Shown here piece by piece: positions 3,086 to 22,829 of a stretch of DNA of 23,813 bases (position 1 is the first letter of the stretch; the number at the start of each line of letters is the position of its first letter). Source of the DNA: a virus; UHGV virus genome UHGV-0126638; one strand, 5' to 3'. Under the pieces are notes generated by a model that searched no databases, was not told the origin of the DNA, and saw only the letters and a program-made list of their open reading frames with translations. The position numbers were made by a program, and so were the translations under genes.

Positions 3086-3595
3086 ATGTTTGATTACCAA
3101 GTTTCCAAACATCCACATTTTGATGAAGCCTGTCGTGCATTCGCATTGCGCCACAACCTAGTGCAACTGGCAGAACGTGCAGGCATGAATGTGCAGATTC
3201 TGCGGAACAAGCTGAACCCAGCTCAACCTCATTTATTAACCGCACCAGAAATCTGGTTGCTTACCGATCTGACTGAAGATTCAACGCTGGTAGATGGCTT
3301 TCTGGCACAGATTCACTGCCTGCCATGTGTACCGATTAATGAGGTGGCAAAAGAGAAACTGCCGCATTACGTCATGAGTGCAACTGCAGAGATAGGGCGT
3401 GTCGCGGCAGGTGCGGTTTCTGGCGATGTAAAAACCAGTGCAGGCCGTCGTGATGCGATCAGCAGCATTAACTCTGTTACACGACTGATGGCGCTGGCTG
3501 CTGTTTCATTGCAGGCCCGTTTACAGGCTAATCCTGCGATGGCGAGTGCAGTTGATACCGTGACTGGCCTCGGTGCTTCATTCGGTTTGCTGTGA
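3086..3595 (+). CDS. Phage 186 CII-like transcriptional activator
   Basis: Translation from ATG 3086 ([45 protein letters not shown]...[28 protein letters not shown]...) closely resembles my recollection of 186 CII (169 aa). AGAGG Shine-Dalgarno 7 nt upstream. Confidence 0.8.
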
Positions 3596-3602
3596 GGTGC
3601 TT

Positions 3603-3899
3603 ATGCTGACGAAAGAACCATCATTTGCATCGCTGCTGGTAAAACAAAGTCCGGCAATGCACTACGGTCACGGCTGGATCATGGGTGAGGATGGTAAACG
3701 CTGGCATCCGTGCCGTTCACAAGATGAATTGCTGTCTGAATTGACCACGAGGAAACGGAGAAAGTCCAAATGTATGCGGCAGAAAATAAAGTGGTTTATC
3801 ACTTTCGTTACAGAGGGGAGAATTATTCAGTACCTGAAGATGATTTGCTCTGTTGCTATCCGTCGTTGTCGGGCGATGGTAGCTACTTTTTCACGCTAA
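3603..3899 (+). CDS. Hypothetical early protein; 3' extent uncertain because it overlaps the next gene out of frame
   Basis: ATG 3603 preceded by GAGGTG. The first ~55 residues look protein-like; the remainder overlaps ORF 3770..3994 in another frame and looks like a read-through artefact. Confidence 0.3.
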   Translation: MLTKEPSFASLLVKQSPAMHYGHGWIMGEDGKRWHPCRSQDELLSELTTRKRRKSKCMRQKIKWFITFVTEGRIIQYLKMICSVAIRRCRAMVATFSR

Positions 3900-3994
3900 A
3901 GGATGGAACCTTTATACGTGGTGAAAAAGTACAAGAAGTGATGCGTATAAAGACATCACCTCTTGAACGTTATCGGCGAAATATTTATCGGTAA
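3770..3994 (+). CDS. Hypothetical early protein (74 aa)
   Basis: ATG 3770 with GGAG about 14 nt upstream; protein-like composition (MYAAENKVVYHFRYRGENYSVPEDDLLCCYPSLSGDGSYFFTLKDGTFIRGEK...). Confidence 0.45.
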   Translation: MYAAENKVVYHFRYRGENYSVPEDDLLCCYPSLSGDGSYFFTLKDGTFIRGEKVQEVMRIKTSPLERYRRNIYR

Positions 3995-4233
3995 CGATCT
4001 ATCAGTGTCTGTATCAGATGAGTGAATTCTTGTTGTTTAACCGAACCTAAAGGAAGTTTGTTTAATTCTTCGCGGAGGAGCTCAAAAAATGCTGATTGAT
4101 TTGCTGAGTCAGTTCGAAATAAGGAGTGGATCAGACCTGAAACAAGAATTCGTTGAACAGCAACCTCATCGCGAAGACTGGAGATCTCGTTTTCAAGTTG
4201 CTCTATACGCTCTCTTTCAACCGGGTTCAACAT
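3985..4233 (-). CDS. Hypothetical helical protein encoded antisense to the early operon (82 aa)
   Basis: ATG at 4233 with AGGA about 10 nt upstream on the minus strand. Translation is heptad-like and helical (ERERIEQLENEISSLRDEVAVQRIL...). Competes with plus-strand ORF 4089..4325. Confidence 0.35.
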   Translation of the reverse strand: MLNPVERERIEQLENEISSLRDEVAVQRILVSGLIHSLFRTDSANQSAFFELLREELNKLPLGSVKQQEFTHLIQTLIDRYR

Positions 4234-4325
4234 TGATGATTCCTTCTAGCTATCAATATGTTGGTAATGGATCATATCAAAAATTTTTTAGTAGATGTGT
4301 TGTGGGATGCATAAATGGCTATTGA
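4089..4325 (+). CDS. Hypothetical protein (78 aa), alternative to the antisense ORF 3985..4233
   Basis: ATG 4089 preceded by GGAGGAG at about 8 nt, same orientation as the operon. Composition is less convincing than the opposite-strand ORF. Confidence 0.3.
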   Translation: MLIDLLSQFEIRSGSDLKQEFVEQQPHREDWRSRFQVALYALFQPGSTLMIPSSYQYVGNGSYQKFFSRCVVGCINGY

Positions 4326-5184: not shown

Positions 5185-6038
5185 GCACCATCCTGAAATG
5201 GGCGGGAAATAAAACTGCCATAATGTCAGAACTGAAAAAACATCTTCCTGCTGGCCCGCGACTGGTTGAACCTTTCGCGGGTTCCTGTGCTGTGATGATG
5301 GAGACGGATTATCCCAGTTATCTGGTTGCGGATATTAATCCTGATTTAATCAACCTCTATAAAAAGGTTGCCGCTGATTGTGAATCGTTTATATCTCGCG
5401 CCAGAGTTTTATTTGAGATCGCAAACAGGGAGGTGGCTTATTACAACATAAGGCAGGAGTTTAATTACTCAACTGAAATTACTGATTTCATGAAAGCGGT
5501 ATATTTCCTGTATCTCAATCGTCACGGTTACCGTGGTTTATGTCGCTATAACAAGAGCGGGCATTTCAATATTCCCTACGGTAATTATAAAAATCCGTAT
5601 TTCCCTGAAAAAGAAATTCGCGCATTTGCAGAGAAAGCCAAGCGGGCAACGTTTATCTGCGCGAGCTTTGATGAAACGCTGGCGATGCTGCAGGTGGGGG
5701 ATGTGGTGTATTGCGATCCGCCGTATGACGGTACGTTTTCCGGCTATCACACTGATGGTTTCACTGAAGATGACCAGTATCACCTGGCATCCGTTCTTGA
5801 ACATCGGTCATCAGAAGGACATCCGGTCATTGTTTCTAACAGTGACACATCCCTGATCCGTTCGCTGTATCGCAATTTTACTCACCACTACATCAAGGCA
5901 AAACGCAGCATCGGCGTAGCAGCTGGTGAGAGTAAATCTGCAACAGAAATCATCGCTGTTTCCGGGCCGCGCTGCTGGGTGGGATTTGATCCTTCGCGTG
6001 GAGTGGATAGTTCTGCCGTGTACGGAGTGCGTGCATGA
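5181..6038 (+). CDS. DNA adenine methyltransferase, Dam (GATC) family, phage-encoded
   Basis: Translation from ATG 5181 ([11 protein letters not shown]... FAGS ... DPPY) carries the N6-adenine MTase motifs: AdoMet-binding FxGxG-like region and catalytic DPPY. Start after GGAGG; ATGA overlap with gene A. Confidence 0.8.
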
Positions 6039-8449
6039 GCCATGCTGATATGAACAACTGCAGCGGCTTTAACGAGGTCGCCGCAGCATTCTCATGGAAC
6101 AGCCCGAAAAAGGCCATTAACCCTTATCTGGACCCGGCGGAAGTTGCGCCGGTTTCTGCGCTTTCAAACCTGATCACTCTGTACGCTGTCGATAACGAGC
6201 AGGAACAACTGCGCCGCGAGGCACTGAGTGATCAGGTCTGGGAGCGTTATTTCTTTAATGAATCCCGTGATCCTGTCCAGCGCGAAATGGAGCAGGATAA
6301 ACTTATTAGCCGGGCAAAGCTGGCGCATGAGCAGCAGCGTTTTAATCCAGATATGGTCATTCTGGCGGACGTCAATGCCCAGCCTTCCCATATCAGCAAG
6401 CCGCTGATGCAACGTATTGAATACTTCAGCAGCCTGGGCAGGCCAAAGGCTTATTCCCGCTATTTGCGTGAGACGATTAAGCCATGTCTGGAACGACTGG
6501 AGCATGTACGCGACTGTCAGCTATCCACTTCTTTTCGCTTTATGGCAAGCCATGAAGGGCTGGACGGCCTGCTGATCCTGCCTGAAATGAGTCAGGATCA
6601 GGTGAAGCGCCTGTCTACCCTTGTCGCCGCGCATATGAGCATGTGCCTTGATGCAGCTTGTGGTGATTTGTATGCCACCGATGACATTAAGCCAGAAGAA
6701 ATCCGCAAAACATGGGAAAAGGTGGCAGCGGAAACCCTGCGTCTGGATGTTATCCCGCCTGCGTTTGAGCAACTCCGTCGGAAAAGAAACCGCCGTAAAC
6801 CCGTGCCTTATGAACTCATTCCGGGTTCGCTGGCGCGTATGTTATGCGCCGACTGGTGGTATCGGAAATTATGGAAGATGCGTTGCGAATGGCGGGAAGA
6901 GCAGTTGCGTGCTGTTTGCCTGGTCAGCAAAAAAGCATCTCCCTATGTCAGCTATGAAGCCGTGATGCATAAACGTGAGCAGCGCCGTAAGTCGCTGGAG
7001 TTTTTCCGTTCTCATGAACTGGTGAACGAAGACGGCGACACGCTGGATATGGAAGACGTGGTAAACGCCAGCAGCAGCAACCCTGCACATCGCCGCAATG
7101 AGATGATGGCCTGTGTTAAAGGTCTGGAGCTTATCGCGGAAATGCGCGGTGACAGCGCCGTTTTCTACACCATCACCTGTCCGTCACGTTTCCATTCCAC
7201 GCTAAATAACGGCAGGCCCAACCCGACCTGGACAAATGCGACGGTAAGACAAAGCAGTGATTATCTGGTCGGTATGTTTGCTGCATTTCGTAAGGCGATG
7301 CACAAAGCCGGATTACGCTGGTATGGCGTGCGGGTGGCTGAGCCGCATCATGACGGTACAGTTCACTGGCACCTGTTGTGTTTTATGCGCAAAAAAGATC
7401 GCCGCGCCATTACTGCTTTGTTGCGTAAGTTTGCCATTCGTGAAGACCGCGAGGAGCTGGGTAATAACACGGAACCACGCTTTAAGTCTGAGCTGATAAA
7501 CCCGCGCAAAGGTACGCCAACAAGCTACATCGCGAAATACATCAGTAAGAACATTGACGGGCGTGGTCTGGCTGGCGAGATCAGCAAGGAAACGGGTAAA
7601 TCCCTGCGTGATAACGCTGAATACGTTAATGCCTGGGCGTCTCTGCATCGTGTTCAGCAATTCCGCTTCTTTGGCATTCCGGGGCGTCAGGCTTACCGTG
7701 AACTGCGATTGCTGGCTGGTCAGGCGGCAAGGCAACAGGGGGGCAAAAAAGCAGGTGCGCCGGTACTGGATAACCCGCGCCTTGATGCCATCCTGGCCGC
7801 TGCTGATGCTGGTTGTTTTGCCACCTACATCATGAAGCAGGGCGGCGTACTGGTTCCCCGCAAATATCACCTCATCAGAACCGCTTATGAAATCAACGAA
7901 GAGCCGACCGCCTATGGCGATCACGGTATTCGTATTTATGGCATCTGGTCACCCATTGCAGAGGGCAAGATCTGCACTCATGCGGTGAAGTGGAAAATGG
8001 TTCGTAAGGCCGTTGACATTCAGGAGGCGGCAGCCGACCAGGGCGCTTGCGCCCCTTGGACTCGTGGCAATAACTGTCCCCTTGCTGAAAATTTGAACCA
8101 ACAAGGGAAAGACAAATCAGCTGATGGGGATACCAGAACGGATATCACCCGCATGGATGACAAGGAGTTGCACGATTACCTGCACAGTATGAGCAAAAAA
8201 GAGCGCCGGGAACTGGCAGCAAGGTTACGCCTGGTTAAACCGAAACGGCGTAAAGACTACAAACAGCGAATTACAGATCATCAGCGACAGCAGCTCGTCT
8301 ATGAGCTGAAGTCCAGAGGATTTGATGGTAGCGAGAAAGAGGTCGATTTACTCCTTAGCGGCGGCAGTATTCCGTCAGGAGCAGGCCTGCGTATCTTCTA
8401 TCGGAACCAGCGTTTGCAGGAAGATGATAAGTGGCGGGATCTGTATTAA
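6035..8449 (+). CDS. A: P2 gpA-like replication initiation protein (rolling-circle endonuclease)
   Basis: 804-aa ORF downstream of the early genes; size and position match P2 A. An HxH-type motif (VHWHLL) and a Tyr-containing motif (YIAKYISK) fit a rolling-circle initiator. Confidence 0.8.
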
Positions 8450-8541
8450 TTACGCGGGTTAACAATTCGTGCTCTTAATAATACCAGGCATATCAGGCTG
8501 ATGAACGTAAAAAAACGTTTTACATCAGTAAGATTATTATA

Positions 8542-8561
8542 TACTGTGAATATAAACAGTG
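8542..8561. promoter_or_regulatory. LexA (SOS) box TACTGTGAATATAAACAGTG
   Basis: CTGT-N8-ACAG with an AT-rich centre, 17 of 20 matches to the LexA consensus TACTGTATATATATACAGTA, in an AT-rich promoter-like region about 40 bp upstream of ORF 8602. Confidence 0.6.
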
Positions 8562-8601
8562 GTTATGTATACAGTATTGCTTTGGTGTTATAGGAGGAAA
8601 G

Positions 8602-8790
8602 ATGCAGGACTATTTTTTGGAGTCTTTGAAGCTCCAGCGCATTGATTTTTTTCTTAAGCTTGTAGCGGCTAGTGAGTGTAGTGATGAAGAGAAGGGGCTG
8701 GCTTTGCAGTGGGTTTCTGAACTGACAGATGAACTCATGGCAAAAATCAGAAGCCACGAATACAACCGCTCAATGGATGTCATCAGCTGA
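8602..8790 (+). CDS. Small protein, possible N-terminal part of a Tum-like antirepressor (62 aa)
   Basis: ATG 8602 with AGGAGG 4 nt upstream, directly downstream of the LexA box. Together with the DinI-like ORF it spans 433 nt, about the size of phage 186 tum (~146 aa) as I recall it. Confidence 0.5.
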   Translation: MQDYFLESLKLQRIDFFLKLVAASECSDEEKGLALQWVSELTDELMAKIRSHEYNRSMDVIS

Positions 8791-8800
8791 GGTGACTTTT

Positions 8801-9034
8801 ATGCGCATTGAAATAATGATCGATAAAGAGCAGAAGATTAGCCAGTCTACCCTGGACGCCCTTGAATCCGAGCTTTACCGCAATCTGCGCCCCCTATATC
8901 CCAAAACGGTAATTCGTATCCGTAAAGGTAGCTCTAACGGTGTGGAACTGACCGGACTGCAACTGGATGAAGAAAGAAAACAAGTGATGAAAATTATGCA
9001 GAAGGTGTGGGAAGACGACAGCTGGCTGCATTGA
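8801..9034 (+). CDS. DinI-family protein (Tum C-terminal-like)
   Basis: Translation from ATG 8801 (MRIEIMIDKEQKISQSTLDALESELYRNLRPLYPK...KIMQKVWEDDSWLH) aligns by eye along its whole length with E. coli DinI. GAGGTGA Shine-Dalgarno 5 nt upstream. Confidence 0.75.
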   Translation: MRIEIMIDKEQKISQSTLDALESELYRNLRPLYPKTVIRIRKGSSNGVELTGLQLDEERKQVMKIMQKVWEDDSWLH

Positions 9035-9087
9035 TTTTGTCAATAGATGCTTGTTTTTAATACTTAAAAAGGGTTACATATGAGTGA

Positions 9088-9121
9088 GAGGTGATGTCAA
9101 TCAGATATCACCTCGTTTTTT
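9088..9121 (+). terminator. Rho-independent terminator after the DinI-like gene
   Basis: Inverted repeat GAGGTGAT...ATCACCTC followed by GTTTTTT. It overlaps the 5' extension of ORF 9091..9825, so that extension is unlikely to be coding. Confidence 0.5.
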
Positions 9122-9147
9122 GTCAAGAAAAGAATAATAGGCTAAAA

Positions 9148-9825
9148 ATGAAAATTAACCATATTGCGTTACCTATATCTCTTGCTGTAATCCTAACTGG
9201 TTGCGTGCCTCATGCTTCTAACCGAAATATCACAGCTATTGAAGTGGTGAAGCCTGCTATTGGGCAAAGTGCTACAGCCTACATGGGCGACCCCATCATA
9301 ACATCTGCTACTGGATATAAAACGGACGTACTAGAGCTTGGTGCGGCTAATGGTGCGCTATCTTCTATCTCTGCAGGTACATATTGCAGCGAAGGGAATG
9401 GAATTTACCGCAATCATCATAATTCTCAAGCTGTTGCGCTAAAAAATATCTATGGACAAATCGGCACCTATGTTGATTATGTAAGTTACGATGCTGCAAA
9501 AAATGAGATATCACCACCAAACGGCACTTCTTATACAGCCTCAGAAATTTCTATCAAGCGTGTTCCTGATGGGCTGTGTCGAGTGAGTAACTCATTGGTT
9601 AAGACTATCGAATACAATGGAAATGCAGGCGGTGTAATGAAGTTTACCTATCGTGAGTTTGCAAACGATATGGCTCGTGCAGCGTTTACAACAGATTTTT
9701 CTGTAGATTCGAAGGGAAGTGATGTTATCGCTTACAAAGGAGCCAAGTTCAAAGTGAACAAGGCTGATAACTCGTCTATTTCCTATACAATTATTTCTGG
9801 CTTTGACAAGGCTGTCACGTTCTAG
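9148..9825 (+). CDS. Lipoprotein of unknown function (moron); possible superinfection-exclusion or surface protein
   Basis: Translation from ATG 9148: MKINHIALPISLAVILTGC, a signal peptide with lipobox LTGC. The mature ~205 aa is rich in S, T, G, N and Y (beta-rich appearance). No homolog recalled. Confidence 0.65.
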   Translation: MKINHIALPISLAVILTGCVPHASNRNITAIEVVKPAIGQSATAYMGDPIITSATGYKTDVLELGAANGALSSISAGTYCSEGNGIYRNHHNSQAVALKNIYGQIGTYVDYVSYDAAKNEISPPNGTSYTASEISIKRVPDGLCRVSNSLVKTIEYNGNAGGVMKFTYREFANDMARAAFTTDFSVDSKGSDVIAYKGAKFKVNKADNSSISYTIISGFDKAVTF

Positions 9826-10084: not shown

Positions 10085-11839
10085 GTGGCCTCAGTGGAAC
10101 TGCAAGCAAATGCTCGAACCTTAACAAACGTGTTATCTGTAAATAAAAAATATATAGTCCCTAGATTCCAAAGAGAATATTCTTGGGGGAAGGAACAAGT
10201 AAGTGAACTTTGGCATGATATAGTTTCCAATATTCATTACCAGGAGGATGGGCAGTATCAATATGATGAGTATTTCATCGGTGCTCTCGTTTTGGTCGGG
10301 CAGGAAACTAGCTCTGAGCTGATGATTGTAGATGGTCAACAACGTCTTACGACTCTTACTATATTGTTATCAGCATTATGTGATAAATTTAAGTTGATAA
10401 ATGAGTTGGCTGTAGCTCAATCAATATATAATAATTATATATCTGGTATGGATGACGATGGCAGACCTTTTTTTAAATTAGTTAATGAAACTCCTAAGCC
10501 ATACTTTCAAAACAACATTCAGCATATTGATAAGAGAAATGAAGGACCGGAGTCCCTTGAAGAAAGAAACTTGCAATCTTCATATAATGATTTAACTGAG
10601 TATCTTTCAGAAGATAATCTTTGCCAGACATTAGGAGTAGATAGAGAGAAATTTATCTACTTGGAAGCGTTGAAGGCTGTGCGGGATCAAGTTCTACGGT
10701 ATCTGAAAGTGATTTATATTACAGTTAATGATGAAGATGAAGCTTATACAATCTTTGAAACTCTGAATGCTAGGGGATTAAACTTAAGTTATGTAGATCT
10801 TATAAAAAACAAATTATTTAAGAAACTGAATGGCACACATCCTGATGATGATGCAAAAACTAAATGGAATAAAATTAGGCAAATAATTGCTAGTCGTAAT
10901 GGTGTCGGTTCTATCGAGACATTTATCCGTCATTGGTGGGTGTCAAAATATTCTTATGTAAGTAGTGACACTCTTTATAAAGCTTTTCTGGATAAGTGGA
11001 AAAAAGGCGACATTGATGCTTCAGCGTTCATTGATGAGCTACTTTCAGATGCCGAGATATATGTGAAAATATCATCGCCTACAGAACAGGATTTTCCTGA
11101 ACTGGAAATGAAACCAGTTTATCGAGGTTTGCAGGCATTAAGGCTGTTTAACATATCTCAGAATAAACCATTTTTGTTATCTTTATTTAAGGCAAGAGCA
11201 AGAGGAACGCTAAAACTTGTTGATATGAATAATGCAGTGCTGTCAATTGAACGCTTTCATTTTATGTTTAATGCTATTTGTTCATTGCGACCATCAGGTA
11301 TTGAAAGTGCGTATGCTAAAGCTGCTAGGGCTTTAGTGGATGAAGGTTCTACTAAAGCTAGTAATAGACAAGTAATAAAGTCTTTGCTTGAAATGTTGGT
11401 GAAGAGAAAACCAGACATTAATATGTTTGTTGAAAAGTTTGTTATGCTTAAATTTTCAAATCAAGAGTTGAAAAATAAAAGGTTGATTCAGTACATTTTT
11501 AATAGACTTGAGTTACATCACATGAAAACGGGGGAGTATATGCCTGATTCATTAACATTAGAGCATATTCAGCCTCAGAGTGTGGGGGATTCTGAAGTAT
11601 ATAGCATGATAGGAAATTTATTACCACTTTCAAAAGAATTAAATGAAAAAGCTGGAAATAAGTCTGTTGTGGATAAGCTTGAAATTTATAAACAATCACA
11701 ATATGCGCTAGTTAAAATTTTTATTGATGAATTTGAAAATAAATATCAAGGAGAATGGACGCCCGATCATATGAGGTCAAGAGCTGCTGAACTAAGTATT
11801 TTATCGTATAATTCAGTATGGAAATTGGGGCGTGAGTAA
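10085..11839 (+). CDS. DUF262 (ParB-like, DGQQR) plus DUF1524 (His-Me/HNH-like) protein; GmrSD/BrxU/SspE-type candidate modification-dependent nuclease
   Basis: 584-aa ORF (GTG start at 10085; alternative GTG at 10094 after AGGTGG). N-terminal FQREYSW and DGQQR at codons 83-87 (nt 10331-10345) are DUF262 hallmarks; C-terminal LEHIQPQS...GNLLPLSKELNEKAGNKS is DUF1524-like. The gene is markedly AT-rich compared with flanking phage genes. Confidence 0.75.
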   Translation: MASVELQANARTLTNVLSVNKKYIVPRFQREYSWGKEQVSELWHDIVSNIHYQEDGQYQYDEYFIGALVLVGQETSSELMIVDGQQRLTTLTILLSALCDKFKLINELAVAQSIYNNYISGMDDDGRPFFKLVNETPKPYFQNNIQHIDKRNEGPESLEERNLQSSYNDLTEYLSEDNLCQTLGVDREKFIYLEALKAVRDQVLRYLKVIYITVNDEDEAYTIFETLNARGLNLSYVDLIKNKLFKKLNGTHPDDDAKTKWNKIRQIIASRNGVGSIETFIRHWWVSKYSYVSSDTLYKAFLDKWKKGDIDASAFIDELLSDAEIYVKISSPTEQDFPELEMKPVYRGLQALRLFNISQNKPFLLSLFKARARGTLKLVDMNNAVLSIERFHFMFNAICSLRPSGIESAYAKAARALVDEGSTKASNRQVIKSLLEMLVKRKPDINMFVEKFVMLKFSNQELKNKRLIQYIFNRLELHHMKTGEYMPDSLTLEHIQPQSVGDSEVYSMIGNLLPLSKELNEKAGNKSVVDKLEIYKQSQYALVKIFIDEFENKYQGEWTPDHMRSRAAELSILSYNSVWKLGRE

Positions 11840-17479: not shown

Positions 17480-17761
17480 ATGAAGTTTGTTGCGCCAGAA
17501 CAGGCACCGGAACAGGCGGAAATCATCAGAAATACGCCGTTCTGGCCTGATGTGGACCTGTCGGAGTTTCGCAGTGTCATGCGCACTGACGGCACGGTGA
17601 CGCAGCCGCGTTTAAAGCAGGTTGCGCTGTCGGCAATTTCGGAGGTTAACGCAGAGCTGTATGAGTTTCGCAGACGCCAGCAGATGCTGGGGTATGCGTC
17701 GCTGGCTGAGGTTCCGGCGGAACAGCTGGACGGGAAAAGTGAGCGCATTTCCGAAGCCTGA
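17480..17761 (+). pseudogene. L: Head completion protein gpL, C-terminally truncated
   Basis: Start at ATG 17480 with AGGAGAAAG upstream; NTPFWPDVDL...AELYEFR...LAEVPAEQLDG parallels the P2 gpL N-terminal half. The ORF ends at about 93 aa against about 169 aa for P2 gpL as I recall it. Confidence 0.6.
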
Positions 17762-17952
17762 CTGACAGTATTGATACCAGCACCCCAATGGGTCGTTTCT
17801 TTTTTCATGTCATGGGGGCCCTGGCTGAAATGGAACGCGAACTGATAGTTGAACGTACCATGGCAGGGCTGGCTGCAGCTCGTGCCAAAGGCAGAGTAGG
17901 TGGACGCCGTCCTAAGTTGACCACCGAACAGTGGGCACAGATTGGGCGTTTA
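17746..17952 (+). pseudogene. Internal fragment of a Hin/Gin/Pin-type serine DNA invertase gene (about 69 codons)
   Basis: The frame translating HFRSLTDSIDTSTPMGRFFFHVMGALAEMERELIVERTMAGLAAARAKGRVGGRRPKLTTEQWAQIGRL matches the central-to-C-terminal region of Hin-family invertases nearly residue for residue. The catalytic N-terminus and the C-terminal HTH are both absent. Confidence 0.7.
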
Positions 17953-19020
17953 TCCGGTTTACGTGCTGTTGCTGTGATGTTTATGAATCCTCTGGCGGTA
18001 CTGCGCGGTGGACTGGCCGCCGCAGGCACGGTGCTGCGAGTACTGGCATCTGGTCCACTGGCGATGCTGCGCGTTGCCCTGTATGCCATATCTGGTCTGT
18101 TAGGTGCTCTGCTCAGTCCGATAGGTCTTGTGGTTACTGCACTGGCGGGCGTGGCGCTGGTTGTTTGGAAATACTGGCAACCCATCACCGCATTTCTCGG
18201 TGGCGTGGTGGAAGGATTCAAAGCTGCGGCAGGTCCCATCAGTGCAGCGTTCGAACCGCTTAAGCCCGTGTTCCAGTGGATTGGCGACAAAGTGCAGGCG
18301 CTGTGGGGCTGGTTTACTGATCTGCTGACGCCCGTTAAGTCGACCTCTGCCGAACTGCAGAGCGCAGCGGCAATGGGGCGACGATTCGGGGAGGCACTGG
18401 CAGAAGGGCTGAATATGGTCATGCATCCGCTGGACTCCCTGAAATCCGGCGTTTCCTGGTTGCTGGAGAAACTCGGCATTGTCAGTAAAGAGGCTGCAAA
18501 GGCGAAACTGCCGGAAAGCGTGACGCGTCAGCAACCTGCGACGGTGAATGCAGACGGTAAAGTGATGATGCCATCGGGTGATTTTCCGTCATGGGGATAT
18601 GGCTTTGCGGGGATGTATGACAGCGGCGGCTATATCCCGCGCGGGCAGTTTGGCATCGTCGGTGAAAACGGGCCGGAAATTGTTAACGGCCCGGCAAACG
18701 TGACCAGCCGGAGAAATACAGCTGCACTGGCTGCCGTTGTCGCCGGAATGATGGGTGTTGCTGCCGCGCCAGCAGAGCTTCCACCGTTGCATCCTTTGGC
18801 GCTTCCCGCAAAAGGCGGTGAAGCGATGGTGAGTCGTGCAGCTACTGTGCCGCCCATTTACCGGATTGAAGCACCGACGCAGATCATCATCCAGACACAG
18901 CCAGGACAAAGTGCGCAGGATATTGCGCGGGAGGTGGCCCGCCAGCTTGATGAACGTGAACGCAGGCTGAAGGCAAAAGCCAGGAGTAACTACAGCGATC
19001 AGGGGGGATACGACGCATGA
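17953..19020 (+). pseudogene. T: C-terminal portion of the tail tape-measure gene (gpT-like), fused in frame to the invertase fragment
   Basis: Continues the same ORF (17788..19020) into Ala/Gly/Leu-rich sequence typical of tape-measure proteins and ends overlapping the gpU start. The N-terminal part of T and all upstream tail genes are absent. Confidence 0.6.
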
Positions 19021-20985: not shown

Positions 20986-21031
20986 AACAAAAAACCCATC
21001 AACCTTGAACCGAAATGGCGGGGTTGATGGG
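20986..21031 (-). terminator. ybjL rho-independent terminator (minus strand), overlapping the right copy of the 14-bp repeat
   Basis: Stem CCCATCAACC / GGTTGATGGG (20995-21031) followed on the minus strand by TTTTTTGTT (complement of 20986-20994). The right copy of AACAAAAAACCCAT is at 20986-20999. Confidence 0.5.
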
Positions 21032-21143
21032 CTCCACAAAATGGGGACATCAAAGAAAAGCAGTGGCACTAATTAAGACTGATGCCCTGCGGAAAAGTTC
21101 TGCGGTTGTGCAAAAAAATTTCATTTTCAGGGCAACTTCAGTT

Positions 21144-22829
21144 TTATCCTAATCCTGGCCATACCATGACGATGATTGTCCCTGCCAGCGTCAGCAGGAC
21201 GTTGGCGATTGCATAGGTGCCCGCATAGCCCAGCGCCGGGATGTTACTGCGAGCTGTATCACTGATGATCTCCATTGCCGGCGCGCAGGTACGTGCGCCC
21301 ATCATTGCGCCGAACAACAGCGCGCGGTTCATTCGCAATACATAAGCACCGAACAAGAAACAGATAACCACGGGCACCAGACTGACAATCAATCCGGCAA
21401 TCAACATCTGACCGCCAATCGCGCCCAGGCCGTTATTAATACCGCTACCGGCGCTCAGACCAACGCCTGCCATAAACACCATCAAGCCGAACTCTTTCAC
21501 CATGCTTAATGCACCCTGCGGAATGTAACCGAAGGTCGGGTGGTTAGCACGCATAAAGCCCAGCATAATTCCGGCGAATAACAACCCGGCAGCGTTCCCC
21601 ATGCCGAAACTGAATGTGCTGAACTGGAAGGTGATCATCCCGATCATCAGCCCAATAACAAAGAAGGCGCAGAATGCCAGCAGGTCAGTGACCTGGCTGT
21701 GAATCGAGATAAAGCCGATGCGATCGGCGATGGTTTTTACGCGACGGGCATCACCGCTGACTTGTAAAACGTCACCTTTGTTAAGCACGACGTTGTCATC
21801 TATCGGCATCTCAATCTGGCTACGAATGACGCGGTTAAGGAAGCAACCGTGATCGGTCAACTTCAGTTGTGCGAGACGTTTACCTACAGCGTTATGGTTT
21901 TTAACGACCACTTCTTCAGTGACGATACGCATGTCGAGAAGGTCACGATCGAAAACTTCTTTACCGTTACGGAAGCTGGGATCGAGTCGGGCATGGGCGT
22001 CGGGATAGCCTACCAACGCTATTTCATCGCCCATTTGTAGCACGGCATCACCGTCTGGATTTGCCAGAATCCCGTTACGTCGAATACGTTCAATGTAGCA
22101 GCCGGTTTGTCGATAAATACCCAGTTCACGCAGATTTTTGCCGTCGGTCCAGGCCACCAGCTCCGGGCCGACGCGATAGGCGCGGATCACCGGTAAATAA
22201 ACCTTACGGTTGGCATCAGTGTCCAGGCCACGTTCGCGGGCGATTTGCTGGGCGCTGGTCTGTAAGTCCTGATGCTGCAATTTCGGCAAGTAACGCGCAC
22301 CAACAATCAAACTCACCAGACCGATTAAATAGGTTAAGGCATACCCGAGGCTCAGATTATCCAGTGCCAGTGAGAGCTGCCTGCTTTCCATGCCGGAATG
22401 ACGCAGTGTATCGCCAGCACCGACCAGAACCGGTGTCGACGTCATAGAGCCTGCTAACATACCGGCCGTCAGGCCAATATCCCAGCCAAACAGCTTACCT
22501 AACCCTAAGGCGATCACCAGCGCACTGCCAACCATCACCAGTGCTAACATTAGGTAATTTTTCCCATCGCGAAAAAAAATGGAAAAAAAGTTCGGTCCGG
22601 CTTCAACCCCAACACAGAAAATAAACAGCATAAAGCCAAGATTAAGCGCATCGGTGTTAATGCTGAAATGTTGTTGGCCTAATAACAGCGATACGACTAA
22701 AACGCCAATGGAATTACCCAGTTGGATCGAACCAAGTCGTAACTTTCCGAGACATAGCCCAAGCGCGAGGACCACAAATAATAACAGAATGTAATTCCCA
22801 TTTAACAATTCGGCGACGTTTATATTCAC
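21144..22829 (-). CDS. ybjL: Putative transport protein YbjL (AAE family)
   Basis: 561-aa polytopic membrane protein with a central soluble region; sequence and length match E. coli YbjL as I recall it; synteny with ybjM and grxA. Start codon appears to be GTG. Confidence 0.88.

Follow-up and report, generated by a model that had tools for sequence, protein, structure and literature searches.

The locus at positions 8542-9034 of the DNA analysed here, a stretch of 23,813 nucleotides called the window throughout, can be regarded, with a probability of about 0.9, as an intact SOS operon of a known type, namely that of Fels-2/DuoHS-type E. coli prophages of the P2 family (Peduoviridae), consisting of an antirepressor gene and a separate DinI-like gene and acting by the mechanism proposed below. 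This kind of system is already known and, at the level of the proteins, already characterised; both proteins are identical in DuoHS, the prophage of E. coli HS. The locus belongs to the split variant of tum, represented by PSP3 and Fels-2, and not to the fused variant of phage 186. A preliminary description of the region had hesitated between a tum gene interrupted by a frameshift and a natural pair of genes serving as the SOS switch of the prophage; the second of these interpretations has stood and the first has fallen. The only mildly new element is a candidate double LexA operator of the colicin type in front of the two genes, which makes a small and testable addition.

Organization of the SOS locus

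The locus is located on the plus strand just 3' of the P2/186-type replication gene A (6035-8449), which is the position of tum in phage 186. A putative -35 hexamer TTTACA of the SOS promoter, read from the sequence at 8519-8524 (plus strand) and taken as the counterpart of 186 p95, precedes two LexA boxes of the same strand. Box 1, TACTGTGAATATAAACAGTG, occupies positions 8542-8561, has the core CTGT-N8-ACAG at 8544-8559 and overlaps the -10 region. Box 2, CAGTGGTTATGTATACAGTA, occupies positions 8557-8576 with the core GTG-N10-CAG (GTGGTTATGTATACAG) at 8559-8574. The tumA-type antirepressor gene, referred to as ORF62 (62 aa, 8602-8790, plus strand), has the Shine-Dalgarno sequence AGGAGG at 8592-8597 and the stop codon TGA at 8788-8790, and it is followed by the DinI-family gene of TumB type (77 aa, 8801-9034, plus strand), which begins with ATG at 8801 and has its own Shine-Dalgarno sequence, GAGGTGA, at 8789-8795. 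The two reading frames together span 433 nt, compared with 441 nt for 186 tum, so that both their coordinates and their likeness in size to tum, as given in the preliminary description, are confirmed. They do not form one reading frame of the fused 186 type, since the stop at 8788-8790 is followed by a new Shine-Dalgarno sequence and a new ATG in another frame.

A terminator scan found an intrinsic terminator with an 11-bp stem and a T6 run at 9088-9121 (plus strand), the counterpart of t95a in 186, with a fold energy of -17.6 kcal/mol (z=-4.1 versus shuffled sequence). A search against Rfam returned no RNA family within the SOS locus. The presumed target of the antirepressor, a 186-type CI immunity repressor, is encoded on the minus strand at 2137-2706, and the element also encodes an Apl/Cox-like gene, CII and an integrase. 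The gene 3' of the locus is a lipoprotein gene of the same position and size as 186 orf97, and no similarity was detected between the two.

The product of the upstream gene

The homology between ORF62 and 186 Tum is visible only by profile methods; BLASTP returned no alignment for ORF62 against 186 Tum, for ORF62 against PSP3 TumA or for TumA against Tum. When an ORF62 profile built from 30 diverse relatives was compared with 186 Tum by hhalign, residues 3-44 were aligned to residues 3-44 in the same register, with a probability of 94.6% and E=7e-8. The N-terminal 70 residues of Tum match phrog_698, the PHROG to which ORF62 belongs (E=6.7e-6), and a further family, phrog_8554, is matched both by the N-terminal half of Tum (3.3e-12) and by ORF62 (1.1e-8). 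TumA of PSP3 (phrog_1993) is linked to the family via 186 Tum (2e-23), the direct hhalign comparison of ORF62 with TumA being weak (E=0.005, probability 7%). Judged by these profiles, ORF62 and the N-terminal, non-DinI domain of 186 Tum are homologues.

The AlphaFold2 model of ORF62 is a two-helix hairpin (helices 2-23 and 28-61, mean pLDDT 90.5), in which the nearly invariant Cys26 is located in the turn. Twenty-one residues of the protein are invariant across genera, which is evidence of strong constraint at the protein level. Among solved structures no relative of ORF62 was found. Neither Pfam, NCBIfam nor PADLOC gave a model or match for it, and PHROGs lists phrog_698 as 'unknown function'; automated annotation based on such resources therefore hides a gene for which genetic evidence has been published. 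In practice it means that the 62-aa 'hypothetical protein' encoded beside a DinI-like gene in about one fifth of complete E. coli genomes would be a Tum/TumA-type antirepressor and not a pseudogene fragment, although the importance of this is slight beyond correct annotation.

Published genetics and the identity of the inducer

ORF62 is identical over 62/62 residues to ECHS_RS04495, the tum of DuoHS, and the DinI-like protein is identical over 77/77 residues to ECHS_RS04500 of the same prophage. In the Phollow study the gene named 'tum (locus tag ECHS_RS04495)' was deleted by means of a start-stop codon fusion (PMC12055606), and the deletion primer NHR28, ATAGGAGGAAAGATGTGAGGTGACTTTTATGCGCATTG, is an exact match to window positions 8590-8604 joined to 8788-8810. 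After mitomycin C treatment the DuoHS tum deletion gave no lysis and no virion foci, lexA(Ind-) likewise abolished both, and the host SOS reporter still fired in the tum mutant (PMC12055606). As the start-stop deletion is non-inducible, the 62-aa gene is the inducer and the DinI-like gene alone is insufficient. The proposal that the locus is a tum-like induction switch, controlled by LexA and directed at a 186-type CI, is supported: a protein identical to ORF62 is required, by genetic evidence, for induction in E. coli HS.

Related phages lead to the same assignment. In Fels-2 and PSP3 tum has been described as split in two, with the antirepressor activity of PSP3 residing in the upstream gene (Lemire et al. 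2011, PMC3121763). Tum of phage 186 binds CI and blocks its binding to the operator, according to Shearwin et al. 1998 as cited in PMC3121763.

The roles of the two proteins could be reversed, the DinI-like protein inactivating CI and the small reading frame being only a leader or coupling ORF. We consider it very improbable. The stop codon of ORF62 lies partly within the Shine-Dalgarno sequence of the next gene, which makes coupling possible, and for the same reason the DuoHS deletion may have had some polar effect on the DinI-like gene, so that a part played by its product in induction could be concealed in the phenotype. However, the deletion keeps an ATG-TGA fusion, the intact Shine-Dalgarno sequence and the whole DinI-like gene, and is non-inducible all the same. 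A mere leader would also not be expected to have 21 residues invariant across genera or to be homologous to the N-terminal domain of Tum, and the activity reported for PSP3 belongs to the upstream gene. Moreover, the small gene stands alone behind a LexA box, with no DinI gene, in Cronobacter phage ESSI-2, in Escherichia phage ev015 and in a Lonsdalea prophage. ORF62 is thus retained as the inducer.

Translational coupling through a hairpin at 8779-8796, which would bury the Shine-Dalgarno sequence of the DinI-like gene, was considered and dropped, because the hairpin has z=-0.85 versus shuffled sequence and SopEPhi, MLG42 and phi4.1 show no conservation of the intergenic sequence.

The DinI-like protein

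The 77-aa protein matches the Pfam DinI family PF06183 over profile positions 1-63 of 63 (E=6.6e-23, 81.3 bits, cut-off 24.2) and the structure of E. coli DinI, 1GHH (E=2.7e-6). It is 78% identical to TumB of PSP3 and 41% identical to residues 71-145 of 186 Tum, in agreement with the preliminary description, in which the C-terminal half of Tum is called DinI-like. Its score against NF007893, the NCBIfam equivalog of chromosomal DinI, is 42.7 bits and lies below the cut-off of 111. On these scores the protein is a phage paralogue of TumB type and not dinI itself, and its membership in the family suggests that it may modulate RecA filaments.

A natural pair of genes

The arrangement of two separate genes is widespread. 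A 651-bp region containing the locus is found at 96-97% identity in Fels-2, RE-2010 and dozens of Klebsiella P2-like phages and prophages (about 45 records), and among 5,426 complete E. coli genomes it was found in 1,125, in nine of which the identity is 100%. Annotated relatives show the same pair, a 189-nt 'hypothetical protein' gene and a 234-nt 'DinI family protein' gene; in Fels-2 the pair is annotated as STM2728 and a DinI family protein. The two-gene layout also occurs in SopEPhi and, under the names tumA and tumB, in PSP3.

Codon by codon, seven homologues were compared (window, HS, Fels-2, SopEPhi, Yersinia MLG42, Klebsiella phi4.1 and Pectobacterium), whose proteins diverge by at most 16%. 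The upstream gene is 189 nt long in 7/7 and stops at the same codon, with the triplet varying between TGA, TAA and TAG. Variable columns at codon positions 1, 2 and 3 number 12, 10 and 39 in the ORF62 gene and 18, 9 and 58 in the DinI-like gene, so that the variation of both genes is concentrated at third positions. Relative to the first gene, the second is read in frame +1 in the window, HS and Fels-2, in frame +2 in SopEPhi and phi4.1 and in frame 0 in MLG42 and PSP3. The sequence between the genes differs between lineages, and each second gene has its own ATG and Shine-Dalgarno sequence. A fusion of ORF62 to DinI was sought among the 120 closest clusters at 90% identity and 67 representatives at 50% identity, and none was found, the longer entries among those clusters being miscalls of an upstream start codon. 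The second of the two possibilities raised in the preliminary description, a natural and separate DinI-like gene with the Shine-Dalgarno sequence GAGGTGA before the ATG at 8801, agrees with the layout seen in the homologues.

Programmed +1 frameshifting, or bypass of the stop codon, could in principle join the two products into a fused, Tum-like functional antirepressor. In its favour, frame 2 stays open past the end of ORF62, and in PSP3 and MLG42 the genes share a frame and are separated by a stop and a few codons. It is nevertheless highly unlikely: the second genes have their own ATG and Shine-Dalgarno sequence, several relatives have no second gene at all, and the hairpin at 8779-8796 is not more stable than shuffled sequence (z=-0.85). 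With relative frames of +1, +2 or 0 and no conservation of the intergenic sequence between lineages, there is no common recoding signal.

Least credible of all is a 186-type tum that has lost its function through a frameshift, perhaps at the A5 run 8742-8746, leaving the prophage non-inducible: the size of the two reading frames (433 nt, near the 441 nt of 186 tum) and the opening of frame 2 from 8729 into the DinI-like ORF speak for it, but about 24 stop-free codons are unremarkable, the same two reading frames with the same stop codon and with a Shine-Dalgarno sequence before the second gene recur in different genera and in over 1,000 genomes of E. coli, their relative frames vary among lineages, and the identical gene is functional in DuoHS. 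As for the proposed slip site, the A5 run lies within the conserved in-frame motif MAKIR, and the residues encoded at the run and beyond it, MAKIRSHEY, are conserved in frame 1; the run itself is not conserved and is replaced by GCGAAAATC or GCTAAAATC in relatives. The preliminary description had named two separate genes in the same arrangement in homologues as the observation that would speak against it; such homologues exist, and the frameshift reading is refuted by them.

Repressor and proposed mechanism

The repressor of the window was described as 186 CI-like, and this holds: it is 32% identical to 186 CI (E=8e-38), 34% identical to PSP3 CI and identical at 180/189 residues to DuoHS CI, and it matches phrog_4, transcriptional repressor. 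Among the window, 186 and PSP3, the N-domain proteins are about 20% identical, the CI proteins 32-34% and the DinI parts 41-78%. This pattern of divergence fits an antirepressor that co-evolves with its CI, and it supports a division of labour in which the DinI parts would face the conserved host RecA.

The following mechanism can be proposed for the natural pair of genes. In undamaged cells LexA would occupy the double operator at 8544-8574, over the -10 region and the start of the promoter, and both genes would be silent. Upon DNA damage, LexA cleavage stimulated by RecA would derepress the promoter, and the two genes would be translated independently. The 62-aa two-helix protein, an antirepressor of the PSP3 TumA type, would bind the 186-type CI and prevent it from binding its operator, by which the lytic promoter would be turned on; its direct binding to CI is suggested by homology with 186 Tum. 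The DinI-like protein would modulate the activity of RecA filaments and so tune the SOS signal, without being the inducer, and would be the equivalent of the C-terminal half of 186 Tum together with its internally initiated short products. The hairpin terminator at 9088-9121 would end or attenuate the transcript.

The SOS promoter and its candidate double operator

The LexA box reported at 8542-8561 has been borne out. Its core at 8544-8559, a palindrome with an AT-rich spacer, is the sole match to CTGT-N8-ACAG in the 23.8-kb window, where 0.34 would be expected by chance, and the box agrees with the 20-mer consensus TACTGTATATATATACAGTA at 16/20 positions, all four mismatches being outside CTGT/ACAG. 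Because of these four mismatches, a consensus search that tolerates up to three finds nothing in the window. Each homologue that was examined has a LexA box at the equivalent 5' site, which in 186 is the annotated LexA site. The hexamer TTTACA stands exactly 19 nt 5' of CTGT in the window, SopEPhi, MLG42, Klebsiella phi4.1, Pectobacterium and Lonsdalea, and a spacer of 17 nt lies between it and TACTGT, which is the annotated -10 of p95 in 186; a simple promoter scan of the window made no call for the TTTACA/TACTGT promoter.

The second LexA box, which was missed in the preliminary description, overlaps box 1 by one base, a shared G, and has GTG where CTG would be expected. The combined pattern CTGT-N9-CAG-N11-ACAG (8544-8574) has a single occurrence in the window and none in 100 shuffled sequences. 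It is also found exactly once 5' of the tum-like gene in Fels-2, RE-2010, HS, SopEPhi, MLG42 and Klebsiella phi4.1. It is lacking in 186, PSP3, ESSI-2, ev015 and Lonsdalea, where one box of consensus type is present instead, and box 1 of the Pectobacterium relative has a degenerate inner half. Within box 1 the only difference between the window and DuoHS/Fels-2 is at 8548 in the spacer, with G in the former and A in the latter.

When the 67-bp promoter region was compared with plasmids, matches confined to the operator were obtained in more than 100 small mobilizable ones, and in the two that were inspected the operator lies immediately 5' of the colicin N gene (cna) and of the cloacin gene, respectively. 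The window operator, TATACTGTGAATATAAACAGTGGTTATGTATACAGTATT, and the colicin N operator, TAAACTGTATATAAAACCAGTGGTTATGTGTACAGTATT, are identical at 33/40 positions (counted from the alignment), with 19/20 in box 2; the cloacin operator, too, has a box 2 that is almost the same base by base. The operators of colicin operons (colicin N, cloacin, the ColE family) have, like that of the window, the pattern CTGT-N9-CAG-N11-ACAG with two boxes that share one G. They differ in what is driven, a bacteriocin in the plasmids and a prophage antirepressor in the window, and in the position of the -10, which is upstream of the boxes in colicin promoters and overlapped by box 1 in the window. Double boxes of colicin operons are bound by two LexA dimers, resulting in very tight repression (PMC2994835). 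The near-identity with these operators suggests that two LexA dimers may be bound in the window as well, box 2 included. That the tum promoter of the Fels-2/DuoHS lineage has a functional, colicin-type operator for two dimers, shared as a module with colicin plasmids, is put forward tentatively, as an idea with somewhat less than an even chance of being correct.

If it is true, the double operator would delay induction and make it threshold-like, so that the lethal switch would be thrown only after severe and sustained DNA damage. It could also explain why prophages of the Fels-2 type are tightly silent and yet lethal upon loss of LexA; a lexA null mutation is lethal in Salmonella LT2 owing to Fels-2 (Bunny et al. 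2002, as cited in PMC3121763). No account of a double operator at a Fels-2-type tum promoter was found in the literature covered, to which Bunny et al. 2002, where one may be given, does not belong.

Relation to named systems

The closest system is that of DuoHS, in which the Tum and DinI-like proteins are identical to those of the window and CI is 95% identical. The corresponding proteins of Fels-2, STM2728 and STM2726.1, are identical to the window proteins at 60/62 and 77/77 residues. The DuoHS/Fels-2 system and the window are alike in their place behind gene A, in the double LexA operator and in the 186-type CI. The operators of DuoHS/Fels-2 and of the window differ by one base in the spacer of box 1 and by two or three in box 2.

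The Salmonella phage PSP3 resembles the window in having a LexA box, a small antirepressor gene and then a separate gene for a 77-aa DinI-like protein. In its annotation tumA carries the remark 'similar to 5' end 186 tum; UV induction of prophage', and the remark for tumB is 'similar to dinI and 3' end of 186 tum'. TumA of PSP3 (60 aa, phrog_1993) is, however, barely recognisable as a homologue of ORF62 (phrog_698), the LexA box is single, tumA and tumB are in the same frame with TAG and one codon between them, and CI is a protein of 286 aa with a duplicated N-terminal domain.

Phage 186 shares with the window a LexA-repressed promoter 3' of gene A, with the box over the -10, a terminator after the coding region and a CI of the same type. 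Its Tum has an N-domain homologous to ORF62 and a DinI-like C-domain. Unlike in the window, the two domains are fused in a single ORF of 146 aa behind p95 and the annotated LexA site; tum contains three internal start codons in the same frame, and initiation at the last of them gives the DinI-like part alone. The LexA box of 186 is single, and its partial terminator, t95a, lies just after tum.

More distant are the Gifsy prophages (GfoA/GftA), which like the window have a LexA-repressed operon with a DinI homologue and a small antirepressor (PMC3121763), the latter binding a non-cleavable repressor (PMC3121763). In contrast to the window, dinI comes first in the Gifsy operons, and the families of both antirepressor and repressor are different (PMC3121763).

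State of the prophage

From rcdA (20-586) to ybjL (21144-22829) the window runs colinear with the region of E. coli HS that contains DuoHS, and the RybB sRNA gene is located at the right junction of its prophage; DuoHS and the window prophage thus have the same chromosomal insertion site, between rcdA and ybjL/rybB. Positions 17749-17950 of the window stand where HS has 933408-945240, and therefore about 11.8 kb is missing. Lost with it are the end of gpL, the lysis genes, two thirds of the tape measure gene and the genes for baseplate, tail fibre, sheath and tube. DuoHS possesses these late genes, and the window carries a different moron. As predicted from this gene content, the SOS switch is intact and the prophage is defective, with no tails and no lysis, and the cause is the loss of late genes and not a frameshift in tum. 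The ORF at the junction, 17788-19020, is chimeric and joins a DNA-invertase fragment (residues 1-56) to the C-terminus of the tape measure protein.

Late-gene loss and insertion site

Comparison with E. coli HS revealed that about 11.8 kb of DuoHS, a prophage of that strain (HS 933408-945240), is missing from the window, the junction being located at 17749-17950. What is lost in relation to DuoHS is gpL in its 3' portion, the genes of holin, lysozyme and spanin, those of the baseplate, tail fibre, sheath and tube, and the greater part of the tape-measure gene. At the junction there is an ORF (17788-19020) in which a DNA-invertase fragment (residues 1-56, phrog_125) is joined to a tape-measure C-terminus (phrog_5690, phrog_28). 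With these late genes lost, the prophage is defective despite its intact SOS switch. In the early region only the segment 3772-4313 lacks colinearity to DuoHS; it takes in the 3' part of a longer ORF of a Fil-like cell-division inhibitor (3573-3899, phrog_32377), a phrog_4312 ORF (3770-3994) and an unmatched ORF of 78 aa (4089-4325).

The right prophage end adjoins the gene of RybB sRNA (20986-21064, minus strand; Rfam RF00110, 105 bits), and the element is flanked in the window by rcdA (20-586) and ybjL (21144-22829). DuoHS occupies exactly the same site in E. coli HS, between rcdA and ybjL, an arrangement that points to rybB, or a position beside it, as the probable integration site.

The SOS operon and its relatives

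Tum-like genes of the tumA type, each preceded by a single consensus LexA box, are carried by Escherichia phage ESSI2_ev015 (L010 1201-1413), Cronobacter phage ESSI-2 (L011 1201-1425) and a Lonsdalea prophage (L017 1501-1716), and at none of these three loci does a DinI-like gene follow downstream; the DinI module is thus optional in this phage family. The double operator of the Pectobacterium prophage (L016 about 1430-1470) keeps the outer CTGT, the outer ACAG and box 2 (GTGGGTATATATACAG), while the inner half of box 1 reads TGG in place of CAG, which places this promoter midway between the types with one box and with two.

Directly 3' of the operon terminator starts a gene of a predicted lipoprotein (9148-9825, plus strand; 225 aa, phrog_1353, unknown function) with a signal peptide ending in LTGC. 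It is alike in position and size to 186 orf97, whose expression from a plasmid blocks 186 infection, but no similarity between the two proteins was detectable. The promoter scan returned promoter-like hexamers near this gene (9037-9064 and 9120-9149), from which it could be expressed independently.

The variable "moron" slot, with the SOS operon on one side and the portal gene on the other, is occupied by a gene of a GmrSD-like protein (10085-11839, plus strand; 584 aa, Pfam GmrSD_N and GmrSD_C; PADLOC HEC-06, E=3.8e-90), probably anti-phage defence cargo; in DuoHS, Fels-2 and RE-2010 other genes are found there.

The 286-aa CI of phage PSP3 (cI, L013 1719-2579) matches the N-terminal DNA-binding domain of the window CI and 186 CI twice, at residues about 16-76 and about 99-165, hence this domain appears to have been tandemly duplicated in PSP3 CI.
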